A stretch of 41,554 bases of DNA from a virus. Location: positions 1-41,554 of IMG/VR virus record IMGVR_UViG_3300045988_117571. One strand, given 5' to 3'. The position numbers and the translations under genes are program-made. Shown piece after piece: positions 1-41,554 of the stretch. Every line of letters starts with the position of its first letter. The first letter of the stretch is position 1. A model generated the notes under the pieces. That model saw only the letters and a program-made list of their open reading frames with translations. It made no database searches and had not been told where the DNA came from.

Positions 1-99
1 ACTTTTTTGGAAAGGACGGTGGTTGATCATGGCAGGTGGAACCTGGACTGACCAGAATAAAGTGCGCCCCGGCGTATACATCCGCTTCACCACGGGCCG
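1..99. repeat. Terminal direct repeat, identical to 41456..41554 (circular-contig overlap)
   Basis: Read by eye. 'acttttttggaaaggacggtggttgatcatggcagg...cacgggccg' occurs at both ends, and ORFs run through the junction. Confidence 0.95.
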
Positions 100-11581: not shown

Positions 11582-12219
11582 ATCGACTGCAAGCGGCGGA
11601 ACAGTTGAGAAAGGTGCTTCAAATTTTCGCGGCAACCTTGACGGATGAACAGGCGATGGTGGTGGCCACGGTGTACCCCACATGGACGGTGAACACGGCT
11701 TATGCTGTGGGGGATATCATCAGCTACGGTACCAACGACGTGGGCGACCCACAGTTATACAAGGTCGTACAGGCGCACACCTCCCAGGCCCAGTGGACAC
11801 CGGACACGGTGCCGAGCCTGTATGACGCATTTGGTTTGGACGAAAGCGGGTATCCCCTGTGGGTACAGCCCAGTGGGGCACACGACGCATACAACGCGGG
11901 GGATATCGTCAACTACAACGGGACGCTGTACCAGTCCACCATCAACGGCAATGTGTGGTCCCCGGACGTGTACCCGGCGGGCTGGACGGTGTATGAGGCG
12001 GCCACGGAGCCAGAGGAGCCCGAACCGGATCCTGAACCAGAACCGGACCCGGAGGAGCCCACCACCTATCCCGAGTGGGTACAGCCCAGTGGGGCACACG
12101 ACGCATACAACGCGGGGGCTGTGGTCACTTACAACGGCAAGGTGTATCAGTCCCTTGTAGACGGCAATGTGTGGAGCCCGGCGGACTACCCCCAGGGCTG
12201 GCAGGAGGTGGAGGCGTGA
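11578..12219 (+). CDS. Carbohydrate-binding protein with three CBM5/12-like (chitin-binding-type) repeats
   Basis: 213 aa from the ATG at 11578 (ATGA overlap with the upstream stop). It has three units of the pattern W..(T/S)..Y..GD.V.Y.G..Y....H.S...W.P. The last two are WVQPSGAHDAYNAG..V.YNG..YQS...GNVWSP..YP.GW, separated by a Pro/Glu/Asp linker. Confidence 0.65.
   Translation: MNRLQAAEQLRKVLQIFAATLTDEQAMVVATVYPTWTVNTAYAVGDIISYGTNDVGDPQLYKVVQAHTSQAQWTPDTVPSLYDAFGLDESGYPLWVQPSGAHDAYNAGDIVNYNGTLYQSTINGNVWSPDVYPAGWTVYEAATEPEEPEPDPEPEPDPEEPTTYPEWVQPSGAHDAYNAGAVVTYNGKVYQSLVDGNVWSPADYPQGWQEVEA
11859..11902 (+). repeat. 44-nt perfect direct repeat, copy 1 (within the CBM gene)
   Basis: gtgggtacagcccagtggggcacacgacgcatacaacgcggggg is identical at 12075..12118, an offset of 216 nt (72 codons). 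Confidence 0.9.
12075..12118 (+). repeat. 44-nt perfect direct repeat, copy 2
   Basis: Identical to 11859..11902. Confidence 0.9.
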
Positions 12220-13876: not shown

Positions 13877-14191
13877 TCACTCAATAACCCCCATCAGGCG
13901 CAAAATCAGGTCCACCTGCCAGACATCAGAAACAGCCCCTACTACTGCTCCGGCGGTTATCCATTCGGATAACCGCCATTTCTGTATGTCTTCCGGGCTC
14001 TCCGAGGTGTCCCTCTTACACTCGAACGCCACCATACGCCCTTGTATACTTCCTATTATATCAGGTGTCCCCCGCTCAGAAAAGACGTTGCCGTGAATGT
14101 TGATCGCTTTGGCTCCTGGTATGGAGTTGAGGTAGTCCAACACAGGCCGGACTACCCCAGTATACTCCAACCGCTTGTCACGGTTTGGCAC
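13877..14191 (-). CDS. VRR-NUC domain nuclease
   Basis: 104 aa. PD-(D/E)xK signature GTPDIIG ... VAFECK. It is the last gene of the minus arm and overlaps the upstream gene by 14 nt. Confidence 0.7.
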   Translation of the reverse strand: MPNRDKRLEYTGVVRPVLDYLNSIPGAKAINIHGNVFSERGTPDIIGSIQGRMVAFECKRDTSESPEDIQKWRLSEWITAGAVVGAVSDVWQVDLILRLMGVIE

Positions 14192-14582
14192 GTCTGATAA
14201 GCCTCCCTACCTCGTCGCTAACAATTTTCATCTGCGCCTCTCTAGTGGGAATGTCCTGCATGTCGGGCTTTTTCTCCTCGGTCCACAGGGCCATGAGGAG
14301 GTTAGTGGCCGCCGCGGCCAAGTGATCCTCGTCTGTCCATCCATCCATATATTTGGCCATATGCCGCATCGCCGAATCAAGCATGGTATGCATGGGTATA
14401 CCTTTTTCCCAGTTGCGCTCAGGGTAGTGACCTGATGTTACAGAGTTTTCCATGTGCTTAGACACCCTGATCAACGCGCACCACGGGAGCAAGTCCATAC
14501 GACCCTTTCCTCCAGTGTCCCTGATGGCACCAGTCTCAAATTTCTCCACAACGTTACCTCCCCGTAGAACCAAATCCGGCAT
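14178..14582 (-). CDS. dATP/dGTP pyrophosphohydrolase N-domain-like protein (DUF5664 / MazZ-N-like)
   Basis: 134 aa. The pattern GKGRMDLLPW..L..V...ME......Y.ERNWEKG....M..SAMRHM..Y..G..DEDHLAAAATNLLMAL matches my memory of the DUF5664 (dGTP_diPhyd_N) family. It overlaps the dUTPase gene by 29 nt. Confidence 0.6.
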   Translation of the reverse strand: MPDLVLRGGNVVEKFETGAIRDTGGKGRMDLLPWCALIRVSKHMENSVTSGHYPERNWEKGIPMHTMLDSAMRHMAKYMDGWTDEDHLAAAATNLLMALWTEEKKPDMQDIPTREAQMKIVSDEVGRLIRRAKP

Positions 14583-14988
14583 CCCCGCGCTTGCCGGGCA
14601 CCGCCTTGATCTCGTCTACCTCAGACCATCGTACATCTTCGATAACGTGGAACAGAACCTGGGCCAGGCGCATACCTTGTTCCACGTGAAACATCTTATT
14701 CCCGAGATTGTGTACACACACGAATAACTCCCCGGTATACCCATTATCAATAATACCCTCATTAATTAGGAGACCGTGTTTTCTAAGACTACTGGATCGT
14801 CCGGTAATCCGAGCATACAGGAACGGGGGCATATCAATTCTAACACCTGTATGCACATCCACTGTCTCCCCAGGCGGAATATCACAAGGTTGTGACACGA
14901 ACAAGTCCCACCCGGCGTCCCCCTGGTGCTTCTTGAAGGGGCGCTTAGCGCCCTCTTCAAGTGTGTAACTAACGTACCTAGCCGCCAT
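14554..14988 (-). CDS. dut: Trimeric dUTPase-fold nucleotide pyrophosphatase
   Basis: About 144 aa. Motifs: AGWDL, GRSS, GIIDNGYTGEL, RGDAGFGSTGR. Its ATG overlaps the stop of the upstream AdSS-like gene (TGATG). Confidence 0.85.
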   Translation of the reverse strand: MAARYVSYTLEEGAKRPFKKHQGDAGWDLFVSQPCDIPPGETVDVHTGVRIDMPPFLYARITGRSSSLRKHGLLINEGIIDNGYTGELFVCVHNLGNKMFHVEQGMRLAQVLFHVIEDVRWSEVDEIKAVPGKRGDAGFGSTGR

Positions 14989-16037
14989 CACCGCACCTCC
15001 ACCATGGTATCAGGGCCAGTACCGATGTACTTAACCATACCAAGTACACCAACTTCTTTCATGAACTCAAACAGGATTCTGGAGTTCATAACCGCCTTGG
15101 GATCCTCACACCCATACAGGCTAGGGTCCACATAGTCAACAAACATCAGGGCCACTTCTGTGGGGGAGTTCAGCATGCACGACTGTTCAAACAGCTCGTG
15201 GTCCCATTCTGCGATTCTGCGGATTTTCTTGGTTACCGTAGTTCTTTCGGACACCTCTTTACCGATCCGTCTGGACAGCTCCTCCCAGGAGATTTCATTC
15301 TTCATGGGGCCGGAGTTGCCCGCAACTCGGATGGGGTAGGTGCGGCACACCATCAAAACGTTGGTAACACGGGAGGGAGCAATACCCACTTCAGAGATGA
15401 TGCCCGCTGCGTTGGTATCGATGCTGGTACAGTACGGCCAGTGACTGTGCAGCAGGGACAGCGCAGACCCCTGTGTACCCTCTATTAAGATGTTGGCTCC
15501 TTCGTCCTGGAAGCTTGCGATCAGCGCTGGGGTATTGCTGCGCATACACTCGCAGAGACCGTACTCCTCGGCAACATCCTTAAACTGACGGAATTTGCTG
15601 GGGTCTCTCTGCAGTCTGGCGATGCGGGCCGGTCCAACACCCTCGCCGGTGGAACCGATGCGGCGATGCATCTCGCCACTGGTCCCTCCCTCCTCTTCGT
15701 GGAACTTCTCGTCCAAAATACCTGCTTCGGGATCCACGATCAGACGACCGAGGAAATCAGGGTAATGTCTCATAATGTGTACCAGCTCTTTCATGAACTG
15801 CTTCATGTTGAGCAGAGCCCCACGCCCAATAATGACAGTAGCATTAGGGTTAATCCATCCGCACGGGATGGACTGCATCACGTGTTTCTCCCCATTCCAA
15901 TAAATGGTGTGACCGGCGTTGGGGGAGCCTACCCTCACATGGACCTGGTATTCGTTGGCCACGTGTGCCGCTACCGCGCCTTTACCCTCGGATCCGTACT
16001 GGCCACCAACCAGCACTGTCAGTTTTCCTCGTTCCAT
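14988..16037 (-). CDS. purZ: Adenylosuccinate synthetase homologue, short phage type (PurZ-like candidate)
   Basis: 349 aa. Motifs: GGQYGSEGKG P-loop, NAGHT, IGSTGEGVGPA, IEGTQG, YPIRVAGNSGP, TTVTKKIRR. It is much shorter than bacterial PurA. It is flanked by a pyrophosphatase, a dUTPase, a HAD phosphatase and PolA. Confidence 0.7.
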   Translation of the reverse strand: MERGKLTVLVGGQYGSEGKGAVAAHVANEYQVHVRVGSPNAGHTIYWNGEKHVMQSIPCGWINPNATVIIGRGALLNMKQFMKELVHIMRHYPDFLGRLIVDPEAGILDEKFHEEEGGTSGEMHRRIGSTGEGVGPARIARLQRDPSKFRQFKDVAEEYGLCECMRSNTPALIASFQDEGANILIEGTQGSALSLLHSHWPYCTSIDTNAAGIISEVGIAPSRVTNVLMVCRTYPIRVAGNSGPMKNEISWEELSRRIGKEVSERTTVTKKIRRIAEWDHELFEQSCMLNSPTEVALMFVDYVDPSLYGCEDPKAVMNSRILFEFMKEVGVLGMVKYIGTGPDTMVEVR

Positions 16038-16426
16038 TCCAAAATTCTCCTTACATTTTTAATGGTTATGTCCACAGCGGTCCCCGTGGAAAAAACGTCT
16101 TGCACCACCACAAAATTGGGATTGTGGTCATCAATGTAGACATCCGCGTACACCTTTCTTGTGCCGCTGGGGTATTTCGCCTTATACTTAGCAATATTGC
16201 TGGGCGCATTTTCGTTCACGGCGCAGAAGTGGATCCCCCGCACCTCACACCAATCAACCGCTGCCGTGAGTTCTTCTCCAACTCTGGAGGTCCATAGAAC
16301 GACCTCGTGTCCTTTATCAATCACTTCCCGAATGAAGGACACCATTTCGTCATGCTGGGGGCCGATTTCAGGAAATCGGTTCTCACATAAAATTCCGTCA
16401 AAATCCACTGCTATGATCACTGACAT
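16019..16426 (-). CDS. HAD-superfamily phosphatase (nucleotidase-like)
   Basis: 135 aa from the ATG at 16426, with GGAGG upstream. The track ORF extends to 16558, but that part has no RBS and is Arg-rich and implausible. Motifs: I AVDFDGIL, II WTSR, IV YIDDH. It overlaps the purZ-like start by 19 nt. Confidence 0.65.
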   Translation of the reverse strand: MSVIIAVDFDGILCENRFPEIGPQHDEMVSFIREVIDKGHEVVLWTSRVGEELTAAVDWCEVRGIHFCAVNENAPSNIAKYKAKYPSGTRKVYADVYIDDHNPNFVVVQDVFSTGTAVDITIKNVRRILEWNEEN

Positions 16427-16494
16427 ACCTTCTTTCTGGCCTCCCGTGGCCTCTTCCTTGCGCTTGAGGCCACGGGGGTACTCACATACCGACC

Positions 16495-18315
16495 TCACCC
16501 GTCTGAGCCAACGGAGCGCAACGGAGGGGGCACGACGATGTCTTCTCCTGGCTTCCACTTCTTGAATGTTCCCCAGGACCTACCGTACTCAACGTCCACA
16601 CCTACTGCCGGAACAAAGTCGAAGTCTTCCATGATAGTCTTGATGGCGGGTATGGCCACCTTCAGTTGGTCGTCCGGGACCTCAAACATCACGGAGTCGT
16701 GTACCTGCAGTAGCATATACCCTCCAATGTCCAGCATGGCCGGGAACAGTCTAGATATTGCCACTCTGACGATCTCAGCAACACCACCCTGAATTAAGTT
16801 GGACATCGCCTTGTGGGGGTCAGCCTCCGGAACGTTAAAATGCCGGGTTCTGCCGGTCCACATCTTGATGTACCCGTTTTGCTTGGCAAAATCCTCACAT
16901 TGATACATCAGCTTGCGGAATCCGGGGTACAGCTTGTGGTACCGTTCCAAGTAGTCCCGCGCCACTTCTTGCTCCACCCGCAAGTTTTCGGCTAGGTGCT
17001 TATATCCTATACCATAAATTACCGAGAAATTGATCCGCTTAGCCGCATTACGAGGAATCCCCAACAACTCAGCGGTTGCGGAGTGTAGGTCCGCGTCCTG
17101 CTCGATCAACCCCCGCATTGTAGCATCCTTGGTGTAGTGGGTCACCAGTCGCATTTCAGCTTGCTTGTAGTCTGCCTGGATCATCGTATATCCGGACCTG
17201 GCCTCAAACACATCCTTCACCTTGAACACCTCAGTGTGCTTTGCCACTGCCTGCAGATTCGGGTTACTACACGACAGACGTCCAGTGTACGTACCGATTA
17301 GGTTTAAGGAACAATGGAGAGCATTGTCAGAATCCATAGCCTCGATATACGGCGTGTAGTACCTGCTGTCCACCGACAACCACCCACGGGCCTCCTGCAC
17401 CAATTTAGCCCGTTCGGCTCCCTCCCCACCAGCATCAATCAACTCCTGCAGACGCTCTGCTGCCGAGGACTTTACTCCAAGGAACTCGCACACTTTCTTC
17501 GACGAATTTGGGTTGAGATCGAACCCAGCTTTGGTGTTCAGTCTCTCTTTAGCATCTTTAGAGTGCTGTACTGCTTCATTCCTATACTTGGAAATGGTGT
17601 CGGGGTTGATAAGCATCCCGCGCTGCTCCATCAGCATCACCACGTAACTGTAGTAGTTTACCTGTCTCCAGATATCATACAAACCGTGATATTGCAAAGC
17701 TGGCCTGACGAGTTCCAACAGCGCCCTGGTGAGCCTAACATCGTCACAAGCGTACGGTTCCACGTCTGCCGGATCCAACACATACATCATAGATTTTACG
17801 TTGTTTTCAGATTTCGGATTCCTACTGCATGGGAGCCCTAGGCGCTGGCACTCTTCGAATACCTTATCCTCAAGGATGGATTCTTGTAGGGATCCTTCCC
17901 CAATACCATATCGGTCACATATCTCTTTCAATTTGAACGATGGTTCATTCTCGTTAAGTAGATGTACTGCCAGCATGGCATCTTCAAAATTGGGGGCTGG
18001 GACAATTCCATCTGTAGACATCATATGTTCGTCGAAACTGTAGTTAAACCCGCCATACGTCCTATGCGGATCCGACAGGTACCCTCGGAAGAATTTCATA
18101 CACTCTATCGGCAAGTTGGTTCCCTGTGCATGCCGGAAAGGAAAATAGTAGGCTTCTTCCCCTCGATCCACAGCAATACCTATCACTTTGTCCTGCTTTC
18201 TCTTGGAGTTGCCGAAGATGCACAAACCAGTGGTTTCGGTGTCCACACATGGGTCTGTGCAGGACAGGAGCAGGGGTTTGACCTTCTCCAGCATCTCCGG
18301 TGTGTTGACGAGCAT
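16495..18315 (-). CDS. Family A DNA polymerase with 3'-5' exonuclease domain (DpoZ candidate)
   Basis: 606 aa. Exo motifs: DTETTGL, FNYSFDEHM, YACDDV. Pol motifs: A DYKQAEMRL, B RNAAKRINFSVIYG, C QVHDSVMFE. Confidence 0.9.
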   Translation of the reverse strand: MLVNTPEMLEKVKPLLLSCTDPCVDTETTGLCIFGNSKRKQDKVIGIAVDRGEEAYYFPFRHAQGTNLPIECMKFFRGYLSDPHRTYGGFNYSFDEHMMSTDGIVPAPNFEDAMLAVHLLNENEPSFKLKEICDRYGIGEGSLQESILEDKVFEECQRLGLPCSRNPKSENNVKSMMYVLDPADVEPYACDDVRLTRALLELVRPALQYHGLYDIWRQVNYYSYVVMLMEQRGMLINPDTISKYRNEAVQHSKDAKERLNTKAGFDLNPNSSKKVCEFLGVKSSAAERLQELIDAGGEGAERAKLVQEARGWLSVDSRYYTPYIEAMDSDNALHCSLNLIGTYTGRLSCSNPNLQAVAKHTEVFKVKDVFEARSGYTMIQADYKQAEMRLVTHYTKDATMRGLIEQDADLHSATAELLGIPRNAAKRINFSVIYGIGYKHLAENLRVEQEVARDYLERYHKLYPGFRKLMYQCEDFAKQNGYIKMWTGRTRHFNVPEADPHKAMSNLIQGGVAEIVRVAISRLFPAMLDIGGYMLLQVHDSVMFEVPDDQLKVAIPAIKTIMEDFDFVPAVGVDVEYGRSWGTFKKWKPGEDIVVPPPLRSVGSDG

Positions 18316-18800
18316 CAGCCCTCTCTGGCCTCAGCCAGCTCCTTGAGAGTCATCACACGGGAGATTTGGGAGCGGGCTTGGCCGTTGTACTCAGTCACCT
18401 CAATAAGGGCGCCGCAGTCTTTACCAACCACATCAGACCGTTTGAATTTAACTACCTGACCTTGCTGTCCCACACCAAGGGCCATCACGGTTTCCGCTAC
18501 CTTCCACATAGCAGCAGGGGTGATGGCCGTAAACACCTTGAACTCCCGACCAGTGTAATTACCCTCTACCACTGCGAACGTCCAGACGAACATCGGGTTG
18601 CCGCTCTTAGAAACGGACTGCTCCACATCGTTGCAACACACCTTATACAAGCCATCTGGAACCTTAAAGTTGTCCTGTACATTGGTGAGATCAATCTCAA
18701 AAGCATCCGGAGAAGAAACGGAACTGTTACCGGGCATGGGGGACTGAGTGGAGGGAGCGGGGACTCCACCGGGGGCGGGCATAAAAGGGTTGTTAGTCAT
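18315..18800 (-). CDS. DUF669-like protein (SSB-like partner of the Sak4 ATPase)
   Basis: 161 aa. It lies directly downstream of the Sak4-like ATPase, as is usual. The core pattern is P.G.Y......VE...SK.G.PM.V..F.V.EG.Y.GR. Confidence 0.55.
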   Translation of the reverse strand: MTNNPFMPAPGGVPAPSTQSPMPGNSSVSSPDAFEIDLTNVQDNFKVPDGLYKVCCNDVEQSVSKSGNPMFVWTFAVVEGNYTGREFKVFTAITPAAMWKVAETVMALGVGQQGQVVKFKRSDVVGKDCGALIEVTEYNGQARSQISRVMTLKELAEAREG

Positions 18801-18815
18801 TTTGTTTTCCTCCTG

Positions 18816-19595
18816 TTAATTGTTTAAATACTTCCCCATGATATCAACCATGTTGGGATCTCGAATGATTGGACCAATACGCTGAGCAAACTCACTGCCA
18901 CGGGTTTTAGCAGCAAAGTTGTTCATAGGCTGGGTGAGAAGGTATCTATGTGTCTCGCTGCGGTACCCAACTTCCTCGTTACCGGCCTGCTCGTCAGCGG
19001 TGTACAGATACCACACAAAGTCCATATACCCCATCACTGCCGTGCAAAGCTTCTCGGTCAGGTTGGGTTTGGACTCTTCTAGGACGTTGGTGCCCTTGCG
19101 CATTTTGTCTTTCTTGTGGGCGATGTAGATGACGTGCATCGGAAGGTCCCTAAACCCCCGCAGGATTCGGGCAAGGCGTTTGCCAGACACCCCGTAGTCC
19201 TCCAAGTAGACTTCATCAATGGAGTAATTCTTGTCCTTCTTGCGCCGATTGGCGAACTCCTTAGTGGTGATCCCCTCCAGTACCAGGGTTTGCAGCTCAG
19301 TAATGTTGTCAATCACCACGGTTTTGGTGTTTTCATACTTCGGATCGTGACTAACAATCCGGAAAAGTTCTTGCTCCAGATCATCTGCTGTGTGGATGTC
19401 CGTTGCATGAATGTCCCCACGGCTGGCCAACGTCATGATACCACCATCGATGTTGAAAACGTGGACATCAGCCATTTCTGGCACATCTTGGGCGGTACCG
19501 GCCAGGTAAGTCTTCCCACTTCCTGGGTCCCCATAAATTAAAACGTTGAGCTTACTCAGAAAGATGCTAGGTGTAATCAAATAACCGTCATTCAT
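18816..19595 (-). CDS. AAA/RecA-like ATPase (Sak4-type recombination protein)
   Basis: 259 aa. Walker A is YGDPGSGKT and Walker B-like is VVIDNITEL. It is paired with a DUF669 gene. Confidence 0.7.
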   Translation of the reverse strand: MNDGYLITPSIFLSKLNVLIYGDPGSGKTYLAGTAQDVPEMADVHVFNIDGGIMTLASRGDIHATDIHTADDLEQELFRIVSHDPKYENTKTVVIDNITELQTLVLEGITTKEFANRRKKDKNYSIDEVYLEDYGVSGKRLARILRGFRDLPMHVIYIAHKKDKMRKGTNVLEESKPNLTEKLCTAVMGYMDFVWYLYTADEQAGNEEVGYRSETHRYLLTQPMNNFAAKTRGSEFAQRIGPIIRDPNMVDIMGKYLNN

Positions 19596-19599
19596 TTTA

Positions 19600-19992
19600 T
19601 CACCTTCTTAGTATGTTTCCTTCCCAATCTACTACGCCCGTCCTAATTAGCTCAGGTATAGTCTTGTTGTTCCATCTACTGTGCAAAATGTGTAAGTGAC
19701 ACCTTTCGCACAGACACACAAGATTAGAAAATTCGTTATTGGTATTATCTTGGTCTTTATGGTGGATATGCAGTTCTACGCCATCATCACGGGTGGCTCC
19801 ACAATAGAAACATTCCCACACGCCACCTCCATCAGTATATGATCTCTTGTGAGGTAGCCCACGGTCTTGCATTCTGCGGTTGTTGCGTAGTCTCTGCTCC
19901 TCACTCAATTCGGATACCCTGTATTTGTGCTGATTGCGCCTTTTTGATTCTCTCTTGCATATCTTGGCTTTTTCAGGGTCTTTATACGGCAT
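19600..19992 (-). CDS. HNH endonuclease
   Basis: 130 aa. Motif: CFYCG...ELHIHHKD.D..NN...NLV.LC..CH..IH. Confidence 0.8.
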   Translation of the reverse strand: MPYKDPEKAKICKRESKRRNQHKYRVSELSEEQRLRNNRRMQDRGLPHKRSYTDGGGVWECFYCGATRDDGVELHIHHKDQDNTNNEFSNLVCLCERCHLHILHSRWNNKTIPELIRTGVVDWEGNILRR

Positions 19993-20001
19993 ACTTCCTC
20001 C

Positions 20002-20571
20002 TCATGTCTTATCGATGTAGGTTGCGGCTTCATCTGCCACATGAAGCAGCCACGCCAGCCGGTTGTGCTCGAACACTTCCCCGGGCTTTCCGTAGTCCTG
20101 CCGGTCCCACGGCCCCATATGGCAATTGATAGCGGCGGCCTCAAACGGCTCCAGGCTCATAAAATGCTGGACCAGGTATACAGACTTGGACCCGTGTCCA
20201 CCGAACGGAAAACTCTCCTCGAATTTGTAGAAGGGCACCTTCTCCCATTGGCCGGTTTGGTCGTTCTTCACATTACGGGTGGACACTTTGTAGCACCCCA
20301 CCTTACACAGGTCGTGAAACAGGGCCACAATGGCCTCGGACTCCCGGCTGCACCTAGCTCCTTCCATGTCATAGAATTCGTTAAGGTCTTTCAATCGCCG
20401 GTATACGTTCAGACTGTGCATCGCTAATCCACCCTCGAACGCGCCATGGTACCGGCTGGACGCCGGAGCGGTGAAGAAATCAGTGGCCTGAATCCATTCG
20501 AGTAGCTTGTCAATCCCATCGCGGTGAATCCCCCGCTTGGCTATGGTCAAAAATTCATCCTTGATGTTCAT
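20002..20571 (-). CDS. HD-domain phosphohydrolase (DatZ-like dNTP hydrolase candidate)
   Basis: 189 aa. Metal-binding pattern: RYHG...H..., LFHDLCK, HGSKS, HVADEAA. Confidence 0.6.
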   Translation of the reverse strand: MNIKDEFLTIAKRGIHRDGIDKLLEWIQATDFFTAPASSRYHGAFEGGLAMHSLNVYRRLKDLNEFYDMEGARCSRESEAIVALFHDLCKVGCYKVSTRNVKNDQTGQWEKVPFYKFEESFPFGGHGSKSVYLVQHFMSLEPFEAAAINCHMGPWDRQDYGKPGEVFEHNRLAWLLHVADEAATYIDKT

Positions 20572-28971: not shown

Positions 28972-29781
28972 TTAGAGCCCCAGGACCTTGGCCACGACCT
29001 TCTTACCCAGCTCGGTAAAAGCGATGTATTTGGCCTTCTTACCGTTGTCGTAGCTCCCAACGCTCACCACCAGGAGGTGTTTCTCGCGGAGGGTGCTGAC
29101 CATTGCCCCAATGGTCATAGGGCCCATTTTGTCGGAAAGCTCGTCGCACAGGATGTCGATCCAGAGGGCGCTGTCCAGCCCCCCAGTCCAGAACTGAGTT
29201 CTGGGGAGTTCCTTGATGAAGGCCACCTGCTTGGCGGTGAGGATCACACCCATGCCGTCCTCGACAAACTCTATGCCGCCAACCCGGACCTTCTTCTTGC
29301 GGGGGGCCTTGGTGCGTTGTTCCGCGTCGGCTCTGGAGTCGGCGTCACACCCGAAAATACTCATGGCCACCTTGCGGGTAATAGGGCCAAACTGTTCGAC
29401 GTAGGTGTTGTAGGTGTTGATGTCCCAGCACTCCACGGTGCTGTCCCCACCCTTGGAGTAGTGTTTCTTGGCCAACTCAATGAGCTCCTCGTAGGTGAGG
29501 CCCTTCTTGGTCTTCTCGGTCTTCATCATCTCTTTTTGGATGGCGGCAACCTCGGCATCCTCTTCCTCCTGGACCAAGCGCTCAATGGCCTCGTGCATCT
29601 TGGCGTCCATCCGGTCATCATGCTCCTGCATGGCTTTGGCGAACTCGTTCTTGCTGATGCGAGTGCTCTGTCGGTGCATCTTGCCGCCCTCCACAGGGTA
29701 AACGACGGTCTTGGTGCAGTAGCCGGTCTCGGGGTTCATGACGTACTCGATGTTGTCGATGGTGAACTTGTTGGTGTTCAT
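28972..29781 (-). CDS. Hypothetical early protein, first gene after a consensus promoter; possible C-terminal winged helix
   Basis: 269 aa with RBS TAGGAGG. The middle contains a basic patch (KAPRKKKVR). The C-terminus is MarR-like (MTIGAMVSTLREKHLLVV...YIAFTELGKKV). Confidence 0.55.
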   Translation of the reverse strand: MNTNKFTIDNIEYVMNPETGYCTKTVVYPVEGGKMHRQSTRISKNEFAKAMQEHDDRMDAKMHEAIERLVQEEEDAEVAAIQKEMMKTEKTKKGLTYEELIELAKKHYSKGGDSTVECWDINTYNTYVEQFGPITRKVAMSIFGCDADSRADAEQRTKAPRKKKVRVGGIEFVEDGMGVILTAKQVAFIKELPRTQFWTGGLDSALWIDILCDELSDKMGPMTIGAMVSTLREKHLLVVSVGSYDNGKKAKYIAFTELGKKVVAKVLGL

Positions 29782-29797: not shown

Positions 29798-29862
29798 TTG
29801 TCAAATGGGTGTTTTCCGTTCCTTCTATAAAAATTATAACACGGAAAATGCCCATTTGTCAA
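29798..29862. repeat. 22-bp inverted repeat flanking the -10 box (operator-like)
   Basis: The arms are TTGTCAAATGGGTGTTTTCCGT (29798..29819) and ACGGAAAATGCCCATTTGTCAA (29841..29862). 19 of 22 positions are complementary. The 21-nt spacer contains the -10 hexamer. Confidence 0.8.
29833..29862 (-). promoter_or_regulatory. Consensus promoter (minus strand) for the 28972..29781 operon
   Basis: Minus strand reads TTGACA-18 nt-TATAAT with an extended -10 (gtgtTATAAT). Confidence 0.7.
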
Positions 29863-29910: not shown

Positions 29911-30903
29911 TTACCAATCCCTGACTTGGAAAGCATCTCCCAGCTGCTCAATGTCCGGGAAGTTGTGGCACGCGGTTTTAATAGCATACTTATCTATTTC
30001 AGTAGCCCGGTATCTCTCTATGCGAACTCCGAGTTTGTTCAAGGCAATATGACCACAAGCCATCCCATCGTACATAGACAGCACGTCCAACCGTTCGGTG
30101 GTGATTCCGGGGCAGTGCGAGAGGATGTGCGCTATTACATCAACCGTCCAGCCGTTGCCCAGCATCTTGTACGCCTGCGTGTCGCTCACCGGAAATACGT
30201 AACTGTCCGGCACCGTCTGGAGGCGCTTGCACTCGGTCAAAGTTAAATGTCTGATGTACCAATAACCATCAAGTAAGTTTACCTTGAACTTTTCACCAGA
30301 AATCGAGATTTCACCATCACTTACCAGGTAAGTGCTTGTAATCTCACACCCATAGTTTTGAAGAACGAACGGAGAAATTGGTAGAATAACCATCTCGTCT
30401 TTTGCGTGTGCGGCCAGAAGTGTATTTGACTTTTCTGCATTCGGAAAATAAACATATGTTCCTTGCCTTGAGCCTCTTTTGTTTGCTTGGCGCATTCTGT
30501 CTTTTGTGGACATCAATGTTTGACCATCAATGATCTCGTACCGAACAGTCTCAAACGATTCCGGGATTTCTTCCAAAATGTCCCGCAGCAGAATGCCCTT
30601 ATTCTCCGGATGTTGTACGCCCGGAATATTCGTCCAGTACAGCCTTTGCCGGTTCTGCGCCGACACCAGCGCGGAGTTGATGCAGATAGGTTCCACACCC
30701 AGGCGCTTGGTGATCTCCTCCCGGATAGCCGCGGACATGCTCTTGTTGTTCTCGTACAGGAAATAGTTCGGCTTAAACTTGCCCAGGGCGATCAGGTAAT
30801 TTTCAAACAATTCCCATCCTATGCCGCTCGGCTCTGTTTCCCGGTTCTTGGTCTGCGCGATACTCCAGTGTGTACAAGGGGACCCGCCGATCAAAAGTCT
30901 CAT
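29911..30903 (-). CDS. DNA (cytosine-5) methyltransferase, circularly permuted motif order (IV-X then I-III)
   Basis: 330 aa from the ATG at 30903, with TAGGAGG upstream. Motif order from the N-terminus: IV GGSPCTHWS, VI FLYENNKSM, VIII SAQNRQRLYWTNIPG, IX LTLTECKRLQTVPDSY, X MLGNGWTVDVIAHIL. These are followed by I VLSMYDGMACG, II ATEIDKYAI and III QLGDAFQV at the C-terminus. Confidence 0.8.
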   Translation of the reverse strand: MRLLIGGSPCTHWSIAQTKNRETEPSGIGWELFENYLIALGKFKPNYFLYENNKSMSAAIREEITKRLGVEPICINSALVSAQNRQRLYWTNIPGVQHPENKGILLRDILEEIPESFETVRYEIIDGQTLMSTKDRMRQANKRGSRQGTYVYFPNAEKSNTLLAAHAKDEMVILPISPFVLQNYGCEITSTYLVSDGEISISGEKFKVNLLDGYWYIRHLTLTECKRLQTVPDSYVFPVSDTQAYKMLGNGWTVDVIAHILSHCPGITTERLDVLSMYDGMACGHIALNKLGVRIERYRATEIDKYAIKTACHNFPDIEQLGDAFQVRDW

Positions 30904-30930
30904 TATTGCACCTCCTAATGTGATACTGCA

Positions 30931-30960
30931 ATTATAACATGACAACCCGGCGTTTGTCAA
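30931..30960 (-). promoter_or_regulatory. Consensus promoter (minus strand) for the methyltransferase / leftward arm
   Basis: Minus strand reads TTGACA-18 nt-TATAAT with an extended -10 (catgtTATAAT). The spacer contains TGACAA-N8-TTGTCA. Confidence 0.7.
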
Positions 30961-31025
30961 GTACTCTTGCGTTGCAACACGCATTCGTGTTGTAATAATA
31001 CAACAACTGGTACAACTGACAAATC

Positions 31026-31063
31026 ATTCAAAAACGAGAGGCCCCGTCGTACGGGCACTCTCG
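31026..31063 (-). terminator. Candidate Rho-independent terminator, oriented for the minus strand
   Basis: Stem CGAGAG..CCCG / CGGG..CTCTCG (31035..31063) with a 5-nt loop. On the minus strand it is followed by TTTTTGAATGA. No T-run follows on the plus strand. Confidence 0.4.
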
Positions 31064-31111
31064 GGTTCGTGTGGTAATACAATATTGGTTGCAACCACGT
31101 TGGGTTGTGTT

Positions 31112-31156
31112 GTTGTATTGTATTGCAATTCTTTTTAGAATGCAATACAATACAAC
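31112..31156. repeat. Near-perfect inverted repeat IR-2 (arms GTTGTATTGTATTGCAATTCT / AGAATGCAATACAATACAAC, loop TTTT)
   Basis: Read by eye. It has a one-base bulge. It shares the 19-nt core atgcaatacaatacaacaa with IR-1. It lies about 40 nt upstream of the late promoter -35. Confidence 0.9.
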
Positions 31157-31194
31157 AATGCAACGTCGATATTACAACAAATACAATAACTATA

Positions 31195-31223
31195 TTGACA
31201 GAAGCCGCCGAGTGTGGTATAAT
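31195..31223 (+). promoter_or_regulatory. Consensus promoter (plus strand) for the terminase/structural arm
   Basis: TTGACA (31195..31200), a 17-nt spacer, then TATAAT (31218..31223), preceded by TGg (extended -10). Confidence 0.75.
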
Positions 31224-31332
31224 AAAAATAAAAAAGGAATGCAAGCAGTTCTAGATGTTGGAAGACGAGACCATTCCTGGTGGGACCCGTTCAAGAGAAT
31301 GTTTAAGGGGTATTTGAAGTAGGTGGGGTAAT

Positions 31333-41333: not shown

Positions 41334-41481
41334 GAAATACACTCGGGAGGCCCTGCTGCAAAGCAAGAGGTTTGCGGGGTATCAGCGGGATTTCCTCGCT
41401 GTGGTCCTGAGCAAGCCCGAGTACACCCTGAAAGAGGCCGAGAAGGCCGTGCAAGACTTTTTTGGAAAGGACGGTGGTTGA
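41320..41481 (+). CDS. Small hypothetical protein spanning into the terminal repeat (53 aa, below the ORF-track cutoff)
   Basis: The ATG at 41320 overlaps the end of the upstream gene. Hand translation gives MDKTKKYTREALLQSKRFAGYQRDFLAVVLSKPEYTLKEAEKAVQDFFGKDGG, with the stop TGA at 41479..41481, 2 nt before the sheath ATG. Confidence 0.5.
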   Translation: MDKTKKYTREALLQSKRFAGYQRDFLAVVLSKPEYTLKEAEKAVQDFFGKDGG

Positions 41482-41554
41482 TCATGGCAGGTGGAACCTG
41501 GACTGACCAGAATAAAGTGCGCCCCGGCGTATACATCCGCTTCACCACGGGCCG
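41456..41554. repeat. Terminal direct repeat, identical to 1..99
   Basis: Same 99 nt as the window start. Confidence 0.95.

Follow-up and report, generated by a model that had tools for sequence, protein, structure and literature searches.

The methyltransferase locus

The stretch of DNA considered here is a window of 41,554 nucleotides (nt), positions 1 to 41,554 of the IMG/VR virus record IMGVR_UViG_3300045988_117571, and on its minus strand it carries a complete open reading frame (ORF) of 330 amino acids (aa) in which the conserved motifs of a DNA (cytosine-5) methyltransferase (C5 methyltransferase, here also methylase) stand in a circularly permuted order (Table 1). The two ends of the window are an exact direct repeat of 99 bp (1..99 and 41456..41554), and the window is therefore taken to be a circular or complete genome that measures 41,455 bp once the repeat is counted a single time. 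The methylase ORF runs from an ATG at 30903 to a TAA at 29911-29913. An in-frame ATG at 30984 was considered as the start and rejected, because it would place the promoter at 30960..30931 inside the ORF and because methylase orthologs begin 1-4 residues ahead of motif IV. A reading made earlier from the sequence alone, called the original prediction below, had credited the gene with a strong ribosome-binding site, a consensus promoter and a position far from the contig junction; all of these hold, with an AGGAGG and a promoter that matches the consensus at 12/12 positions upstream of the start, and with a distance of about 10.6 kb to the junction.

Table 1. Positions in the window of the methylase gene, its motifs, the strands of its predicted fold and other features mentioned in the text (TRD, target-recognition domain; AdoMet, S-adenosylmethionine)
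Feature	Coordinates	Strand	Residues	Remarks
Predicted C5 DNA methyltransferase, complete coding sequence, circularly permuted	29911..30903	-	330 and stop	order IV-VI-VIII-TRD-IX-X-I-II-III
Shine-Dalgarno AGGAGG	30911..30916	-		spacer of 7 nt to the methylase ATG
Promoter-like TTGACA-N18-TGnTATAAT	30931..30960	-		12/12 match; consensus match only
Motif IV LLIGGSPCTHWS	30862..30897	-	3-14	Cys10 is the predicted catalytic nucleophile
Motif VI FLYENNKS	30739..30762	-	48-55	ENN instead of the usual ENV; Glu51 invariant
Motif VIII SAQNRQRLYWTN	30628..30663	-	81-92	QxRxR; Arg85 and Arg87 invariant
Variable region / TRD	30250..30618	-	96-218	
Motif IX LTLTECKRLQTVPDSY	30199..30246	-	220-235	
Motif X YKMLGNGWTVDVIAHIL	30121..30171	-	245-261	GNGW at 249-252
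Motif I VLSMYDGMACG	30052..30084	-	274-284	AdoMet-binding loop following strand beta1
Motif II YRATEIDKYAI	29980..30012	-	298-308	Glu302 invariant
Motif III EQLGDAFQV	29923..29949	-	319-327	three further residues, then stop after 330
Strand beta4			2-7	AlphaFold2 model
Strand beta5			47-53	AlphaFold2 model
Strand beta6			73-76	AlphaFold2 model
Strand beta7			86-91	AlphaFold2 model
Strand beta1			271-277	AlphaFold2 model
Strand beta2			294-302	AlphaFold2 model
Strand beta3			318-323	AlphaFold2 model
Third perfect TTGACA-N18-TGnTATAAT promoter	29833..29862	-		directly after the methylase stop
269-aa ORF downstream of the methylase	28972..29781	-		preceded by promoter 29833..29862
Divergent control region	30985..31330			low G+C (0.40); between methylase and small terminase gene
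ORFs of the likely Z-genome set	14178..14582, 14554..14991, 14988..16037, 16495..18315, 20002..20571	-		

Order and conservation of the motifs

As the original prediction had described, the chain begins at motif IV and motifs I to III come only after motif X, with the stop codon behind them; every motif could be located in that order. The first structural element of the chain in the AlphaFold2 model is strand beta4, at motif IV. Motif X forms the C-terminal helix of canonical C5 enzymes. In the window protein a short linker connects it to motif I, and the spacing from X to I is 28 aa in nearly all loci.

In an alignment with 40 homologs of 66-97% identity the residues on which catalysis and cofactor binding are expected to depend are all invariant, namely Cys10 together with the rest of the G6 G7 S8 P9 C10 stretch of motif IV, Glu51, Arg85, Arg87, the motif I glycines, Glu302 and the GNGW of motif X, and the same catalytic and cofactor-binding residues are kept in the consensus of the wider permuted clade. 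The TRD is low in G+C (0.41), and both its length and its sequence differ between homologs.

Evidence for a circular permutation

PF00145 is the sole Pfam match of the protein, scoring 93 bits against a cut-off of 22; it places residues 3-263 on profile positions 64-321 and reports a second stretch as well, and the same scan finds no UBA domain in the protein. The NCBIfam model TIGR00675 ('dcm'), which describes the canonical order, reaches 72.6 bits and falls below its cut-off of 100.65, because the module of motifs I to III is out of order, and its match is limited to residues 3-261. With phmmer against the PDB, Dnmt3a is matched by query residues 3-112 on 86-200, 223-262 on 245-286 and, returning to its N-terminus, 261-310 on 6-55. 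When the query was doubled and compared by BLASTP with the canonical methylase of phage FPSV-S27 (residues 1-297), a single colinear alignment was obtained that runs through residues 272-330 and then 1-261 at 42% identity (E 2e-64), with a gap of 4 residues at the junction of the C-terminus with the N-terminus.

The relocated I-III module aligns with residues 6-55 of Dnmt3a and 1-57 of the FPSV-S27 enzyme, and these alignments place the breakpoint in the short loop that links motif III to motif IV. The original prediction had set the break at this point and had taken the C-terminal segment for a I-III module, and the doubled query and the Dnmt3a alignment respectively bear this out; the permutation-aware alignment with a canonical member that it proposed is the colinear one just described. 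The canonical relatives that it described, with an N-terminal I-III module (LSLFDG...ASEIDKYAI...LGDV...DLLIGGSPC), also exist, in phages FPSV-S27, ICP1 and BC679P3.

Predicted fold

The AlphaFold2 model, made from a 40-sequence alignment, has a mean predicted local distance difference test score (pLDDT) of 63 and a predicted template modelling score of 0.65, with a confident core in which the pLDDT of the blocks is mostly 76-94. In this model the methyltransferase sheet is complete, 7/7 strands being present, with beta4-beta7 in the N-terminal and beta1-beta3 in the C-terminal part of the chain, at a core pLDDT of 80-94. The best matches of the model found by Foldseek in the PDB are DNMT3B, DNMT3C and DNMT3A (E about 1e-6), DRM2/ntDRM and M.HhaI, so that the comparison with M.HhaI and Dnmt3 folds suggested by the original prediction favours the assignment at the level of a predicted structure; the Foldseek alignment is sequential, and it confirms the fold class and cannot alone show the permutation. 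Among the PDB matches listed, the top template modelling scores normalised by the query are those of DRM (0.43-0.45), as would be expected because DRM likewise joins motif X to motif I. A structure search against the viral models of BFVD gave partial, low-scoring matches only.

Probable function and role in the phage

Taken together, the order of the motifs, homology, conservation, purifying selection, distribution and fold class make it very probable that the gene encodes a functional, circularly permuted C5 methyltransferase of a Dnmt3-like phage family, and from them we infer enzymatic activity, a target sequence, a role against restriction and a route of origin by duplication. The chain would run from the beta4 Pro-Cys loop of motif IV through VI, VIII, the TRD, IX and X to the AdoMet half (beta1-beta3, motifs I to III), ending in what is normally the surface loop between III and IV, and the folded enzyme should correspond to a canonical C5 methyltransferase in both structure and chemistry. 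Cys10 would attack C6 of the flipped-out cytosine, Glu51 and Arg85/Arg87 would activate the base, and the methyl group would be donated by AdoMet held by motifs I to III and X.

Three points weigh against this reading. Enzymatic activity is deduced from the sequence; residues 103-219, which make up most of the TRD, are modelled at pLDDT < 50; and motifs IV and VI (PCTHWS and ENN) depart from their textbook forms (PCQxFS and ENV). Both variants, PCTxWS and YENNKS, recur in the nearest canonical relatives and are therefore older than the permutation. Among characterised enzymes, none was found with a TRD related to that of the window protein.

The methylase is the first gene of a leftward, minus-strand early or replication block that encodes a helicase, primase, exonuclease, Sak4-like annealing protein and family-A polymerase, and it is divergent from the terminase genes. 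Orthologs that are 83-96% identical to it occur within four unrelated phage replication modules, and no neighbouring gene is common to these. The nearby ORFs tested match no nuclease, defence or restriction family, although an unrecognisable nuclease could escape such a search, and the adjacent cognate endonuclease gene that marks a Type II restriction-modification system was not found among them. From the gene content, the methylase is most plausibly an orphan that lacks a restriction partner. Phage orphans of this C5 methylase family are generally credited with an anti-restriction function, and this one would methylate the phage DNA and so allow it to escape host restriction; protection of the phage DNA is its most likely role.

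An active methylase might instead serve mainly in the control of phage expression or packaging, in the modification of host DNA, as half of a cryptic restriction or defence pair, or as a source of 5-methylcytosine (5mC) for further hypermodification. The gene does adjoin a divergent promoter and operator-like region and the terminase genes, the 269-aa ORF downstream has no family match, and the phage apparently replaces adenine with 2-aminoadenine, which by itself blocks many restriction enzymes. These neighbours are not conserved across the four phage backbones of the orthologs, the ORFs that were scanned yielded no nuclease, TET-like or glycosyltransferase partner, and the usual reading of the family's orphan enzymes points the other way; we consider a main role other than protection improbable.

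Selection and distribution

Compared with a 96%-identical ortholog (P0004), the window gene has a ratio of nonsynonymous to synonymous change (dN/dS) of 0.05 overall and of 0.034 in the part that holds the relocated I-III module (residues 215-330), and purifying selection is evident on all three parts of the gene. This bears on the idea that the ORF is a relic of a tandem duplication that is decaying or has lost catalysis, a pseudo-enzyme that might bind DNA or regulate in the manner of Dnmt3L or DRM3. The deduced nature of the activity would leave room for such a remnant, as would termini that lie unusually near the catalytic loop and the AdoMet pocket, and Albert et al. 2018 speculated that permutants opened between motifs II and III (II|III) may bind AdoMet less well (PMC5944983). 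The same study reports that laboratory permutants of M.MpeI, M.SssI and M.HaeIII opened at II|III or III|IV are active, and a dead protein would hardly keep its catalytic and cofactor residues invariant among homologs and conserved in the clade consensus while all parts of its gene remain under selection. We therefore regard a dead remnant as very unlikely.

The original prediction had proposed a search of related phages for the permuted order, and the order is widespread. The closest clusters at 90% identity (299-572 aa, from JGI, ENA, Logan and NCBI) have it in 120/120 cases; GGxPC lies near residue 6 in every one, and motif I follows 28 residues after GNGW in nearly all of them; the best 150 representatives at 50% identity comprise about 85 permuted proteins and 57 in canonical order. 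With one genome taken per species, the permuted protein is a single ORF in at least 63 of 79 bacterial genome loci. The order is found widely in gut Clostridia phages and prophages, and the cultured isolates with permuted loci include several Oscillospiraceae and Lachnospiraceae, with carriers among strains of Colidextribacter, Flavonifractor, Pseudoflavonifractor, Oscillibacter, Robinsoniella, Clostridium, Acutalibacter and Anaerotruncus. Phage nd4 (OR777945.1; L005 2998..4674) encodes a permuted homolog of 559 aa with a C-terminal extension that is annotated only as 'hypothetical protein', and in MT835543.1 (UNVERIFIED Bacteriophage sp.; L004 3001..4622) a permuted homolog is broken by a frameshift. 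The P0004 ortholog occurs on 13 contigs, the 5 places listed for it being 5 different samples, and it belongs to a different phage backbone in which 4 bp at its start are shared with an unrelated gene upstream. A tblastn search of the whole window with a canonical methylase found no second methylase fragment.

The original prediction had held an assembly artefact to be unlikely, and a mis-collapsed tandem duplication or chimeric join that left an ORF not real in the phage, for which the short-read metagenomic assembly with its 99-bp end overlap and the frameshift in MT835543 might be cited, is as good as eliminated by the identical architecture of the closest clusters from four sources and of isolate genomes, by the contigs, samples and 4-bp overlap of the ortholog, by synonymous divergence at so low a dN/dS, which implies long-term evolution as this ORF, and by the lack of any other methylase fragment in the window.

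Origin of the permutation

An approximate neighbour-joining tree was built from the concatenated I-III, IV-VIII and IX-X blocks of 143 units (about 220 columns). The permuted representatives placed in it, 80/80, form one exclusive clade, whether all columns are used or only the I-III block, and this clade is nested in a Dnmt3-like phage family that also holds canonical enzymes, tandem fusions and a BssHII-like permutant. In-frame tandem fusions of the form I-X-I-X are represented by P0121 (962 aa) and P0138 (618 aa, with halves 46% identical); P0219 is a partly truncated fusion of B-C-A-B form and P0209 has the BssHII-like order IX-X-I-VIII, both within the same methylase family. Inserts of about 170-380 residues lie exactly between motifs III and IV in canonical-order relatives (P0172, P0175, P0178, P0192, P0204, P0210, P0233 and others), which marks this loop as a tolerant place in the chain; in the permuted clade it is the loop in which the two termini lie.

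The existence of extant tandem fusions means that the first step of a route by duplication, fusion and truncation does occur in the family, and the permuted arrangement most likely arose once, by tandem fusion and truncation. Two head-to-tail methylase genes would have been fused in frame, after which the first copy would have lost motifs I to III and the second motifs IV to X, with diversification of the TRD following the permutation. Two observations tell against so simple an account: the bootstrap for a single origin is moderate (the exact clade in 22/40 replicates, at least 79 of its 80 members in 32/40), and the fusions P0121 and P0138 do not group as sisters with the permuted clade and so illustrate the route without being its ancestors.

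A possible relic of the lost copy was sought in the string 'NGHFPC' at 29839..29853 on the minus strand, which stands in frame 20-24 codons past the methylase stop and resembles motif IV (GGxPC). It overlaps the next promoter, is missing from three orthologs and has the wrong spacing, and its post-hoc chance is about 0.01 per 30 codons; the candidate was rejected, the resemblance being more likely a coincidence.

The TRD appears to have a more recent history of its own. Its DNA (30250..30618) is near identical to that of an ortholog in another phage backbone (L085 4001..4996), with a synonymous difference of 0.015, and the conserved flanks differ from the same ortholog by 0.33-0.55 at synonymous sites. 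Near identity within diverged flanks, together with the lower G+C of the TRD, suggests a recent exchange of the methylase specificity domain.

Other features of the window

Perfect consensus promoters face both ways from the divergent control region, at 30960..30931 on the minus strand and 31195..31223 on the plus strand. The region also contains an inverted repeat of 24-28 bp (31097..31166) and three copies of AATACAATA and its complement, which resemble operator sites. The 269-aa ORF beyond the methylase has no match in PHROGs, Pfam or PADLOC; it was considered as a conserved partner gene and rejected, being unrelated to an ORF of the same length near an ortholog.

Further along the minus strand, at 14178..20571, lies a likely Z-genome (2-aminoadenine) gene set. 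It comprises a PurZ-like short adenylosuccinate synthetase (phrog_1211, E 1e-73, with PDB matches to the phage PurZ structures 6FKO, 7ODX and 7VF6), a MazZ-like dATP/dGTP diphosphohydrolase (PF18909), a dUTPase, a family-A DNA polymerase and a DatZ-like HD phosphohydrolase with no sequence match in the PDB. Judged from its genes, the phage DNA may carry both 2-aminoadenine and 5mC. A direct repeat of 150 nt (11851..12000 and 12067..12216, 79% identity, 216 nt apart) is present in the structural-gene region.

Significance

The circular permutation of DNA methyltransferases serves as a textbook example of how protein topology evolves, and permutation of C5 enzymes is already known at other breakpoints, in the M.BssHII group and in plant DRM. 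The present gene is a natural, selected and widespread C5 permutant with a breakpoint unrecorded for natural enzymes in the literature searched: full-text searches gave no account of a natural C5 enzyme permuted at III|IV, and they did not extend to REBASE itself. As the arrangement is conserved across the clade, interest moves from the single gene to the clade as a whole. We are evenly balanced on the joint claim that this is the first recognised natural III|IV C5 clade, that it has the block order of class beta enzymes, that it had a single origin by tandem fusion and radiated widely in gut Clostridia phages, and that tandem fusions and a second type of permutation are extant in its family.

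The only natural prokaryotic C5 breakpoint on record lies in the variable region, which has been taken as evolution preserving both domains (PMC5944983). If the joint claim is true, it overturns the published view that nature permutes C5 methyltransferases only within this region and provides a natural counterpart of the laboratory experiments on 'permutation by duplication'. A large natural clade under selection that is split between beta3 and beta4 of the Rossmann fold means that the constraint of domain integrity is weaker than thought, and the permuted clade and the extant tandem fusions offer natural material with which to probe the route of duplication, fusion and truncation.

The chemistry and biological role of the permuted enzyme are expected to be ordinary; its relevance is to the evolution of protein topologies and to the annotation of gut phage methylases. 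Models of the canonical order under-score the permuted enzymes, TIGR00675 falling below its cut-off, Pfam matching in part and one homolog being left as a 'hypothetical protein', and the annotation of methylomes and restriction-modification systems in gut phages and Clostridia will consequently overlook or mislabel them. As scaffolds optimised in nature, the permuted enzymes may also lend themselves to split or fused methyltransferase tools.

Comparison with known methyltransferases

The closest known enzymes are the canonical Dnmt3-like orphans of Flavobacterium phage FPSV-S27 (QCW20640.1), Vibrio phage ICP1 (ADX88273.1) and Bacteroides phage BC679P3 (WAX05885.1), which belong to the same family at about 37-43% identity over the catalytic core. 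They share with the window protein its motifs, its small size and a phage setting without a restriction enzyme, but their order is I-III, IV-VIII, TRD, IX-X, whereas the window protein has motif IV first and motif III last.

The Type H enzymes M.BssHII, M.Alw26I, M2.Eco31I, M.Esp3I and M2.BsaI are natural C5 permutants (PMC5944983). In these, as in the window protein, motif X is joined to motif I. Type H proteins are opened within the variable region, so that their order is IX-X-I-VIII and the two structural domains stay whole, while the break in the window protein splits the Rossmann-fold domain between beta3 and beta4 and leaves motifs IV to VIII ahead of the TRD.

The plant enzymes DRM2 and ntDRM are Dnmt3-related, permuted, and like the window protein carry motif X directly before motif I; with phmmer, DRM2 aligns in one stretch over the X-to-I junction (query 239-307). 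In DRM the break comes after motif V, so that VI-X precede I-V, with the ENV of DRM2 at 312-314 and its catalytic loop near 592-595. DRM is eukaryotic and is described as having UBA domains (PMC2965745), whereas in the window protein motifs IV and VI are both N-terminal and there is no UBA domain. Its sequence is also far more remote, with an E of about 5e-7 where Dnmt3a reaches 2.5e-18, and its permutation was most likely an independent event.

The class beta amino-methyltransferases M.PvuII, M.RsrI, CcrM and M.EcoGII have the same block order as the window protein, with the motif IV region, the TRD and then the motif I region (PMC7544214). They are N6-adenine or N4-cytosine enzymes with a motif IV of DPPY type and no Cys nucleophile and are not family-level homologs of PF00145; the likeness is one of topology only.

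Known C5 equivalents of this topology are man-made. Albert et al. 2018 built ten topological types of permuted M.MpeI and M.SssI (PMC5944983). Their search of REBASE turned up no natural enzyme of Type B (II|III) or Type C (III|IV), Type B permutants being very active and yet of a kind that 'do not seem to occur' in nature, and their conclusion was that evolutionary routes which spare both domains are favoured (PMC5944983). Directed evolution also yielded Type C for M.HaeIII (Peisajovich et al. 2006, cited in PMC5944983), and the laboratory permutants of Type B and Type C of M.MpeI, M.SssI and M.HaeIII retained activity. In the window protein the chain opens immediately ahead of motif IV and closes immediately behind motif III, and the doubled sequence is colinear with a canonical enzyme, as expected of Type C. 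It thus has its N-terminus at the Type C position, and it differs from the laboratory proteins in being natural, in being widespread and in belonging to another C5 subfamily.

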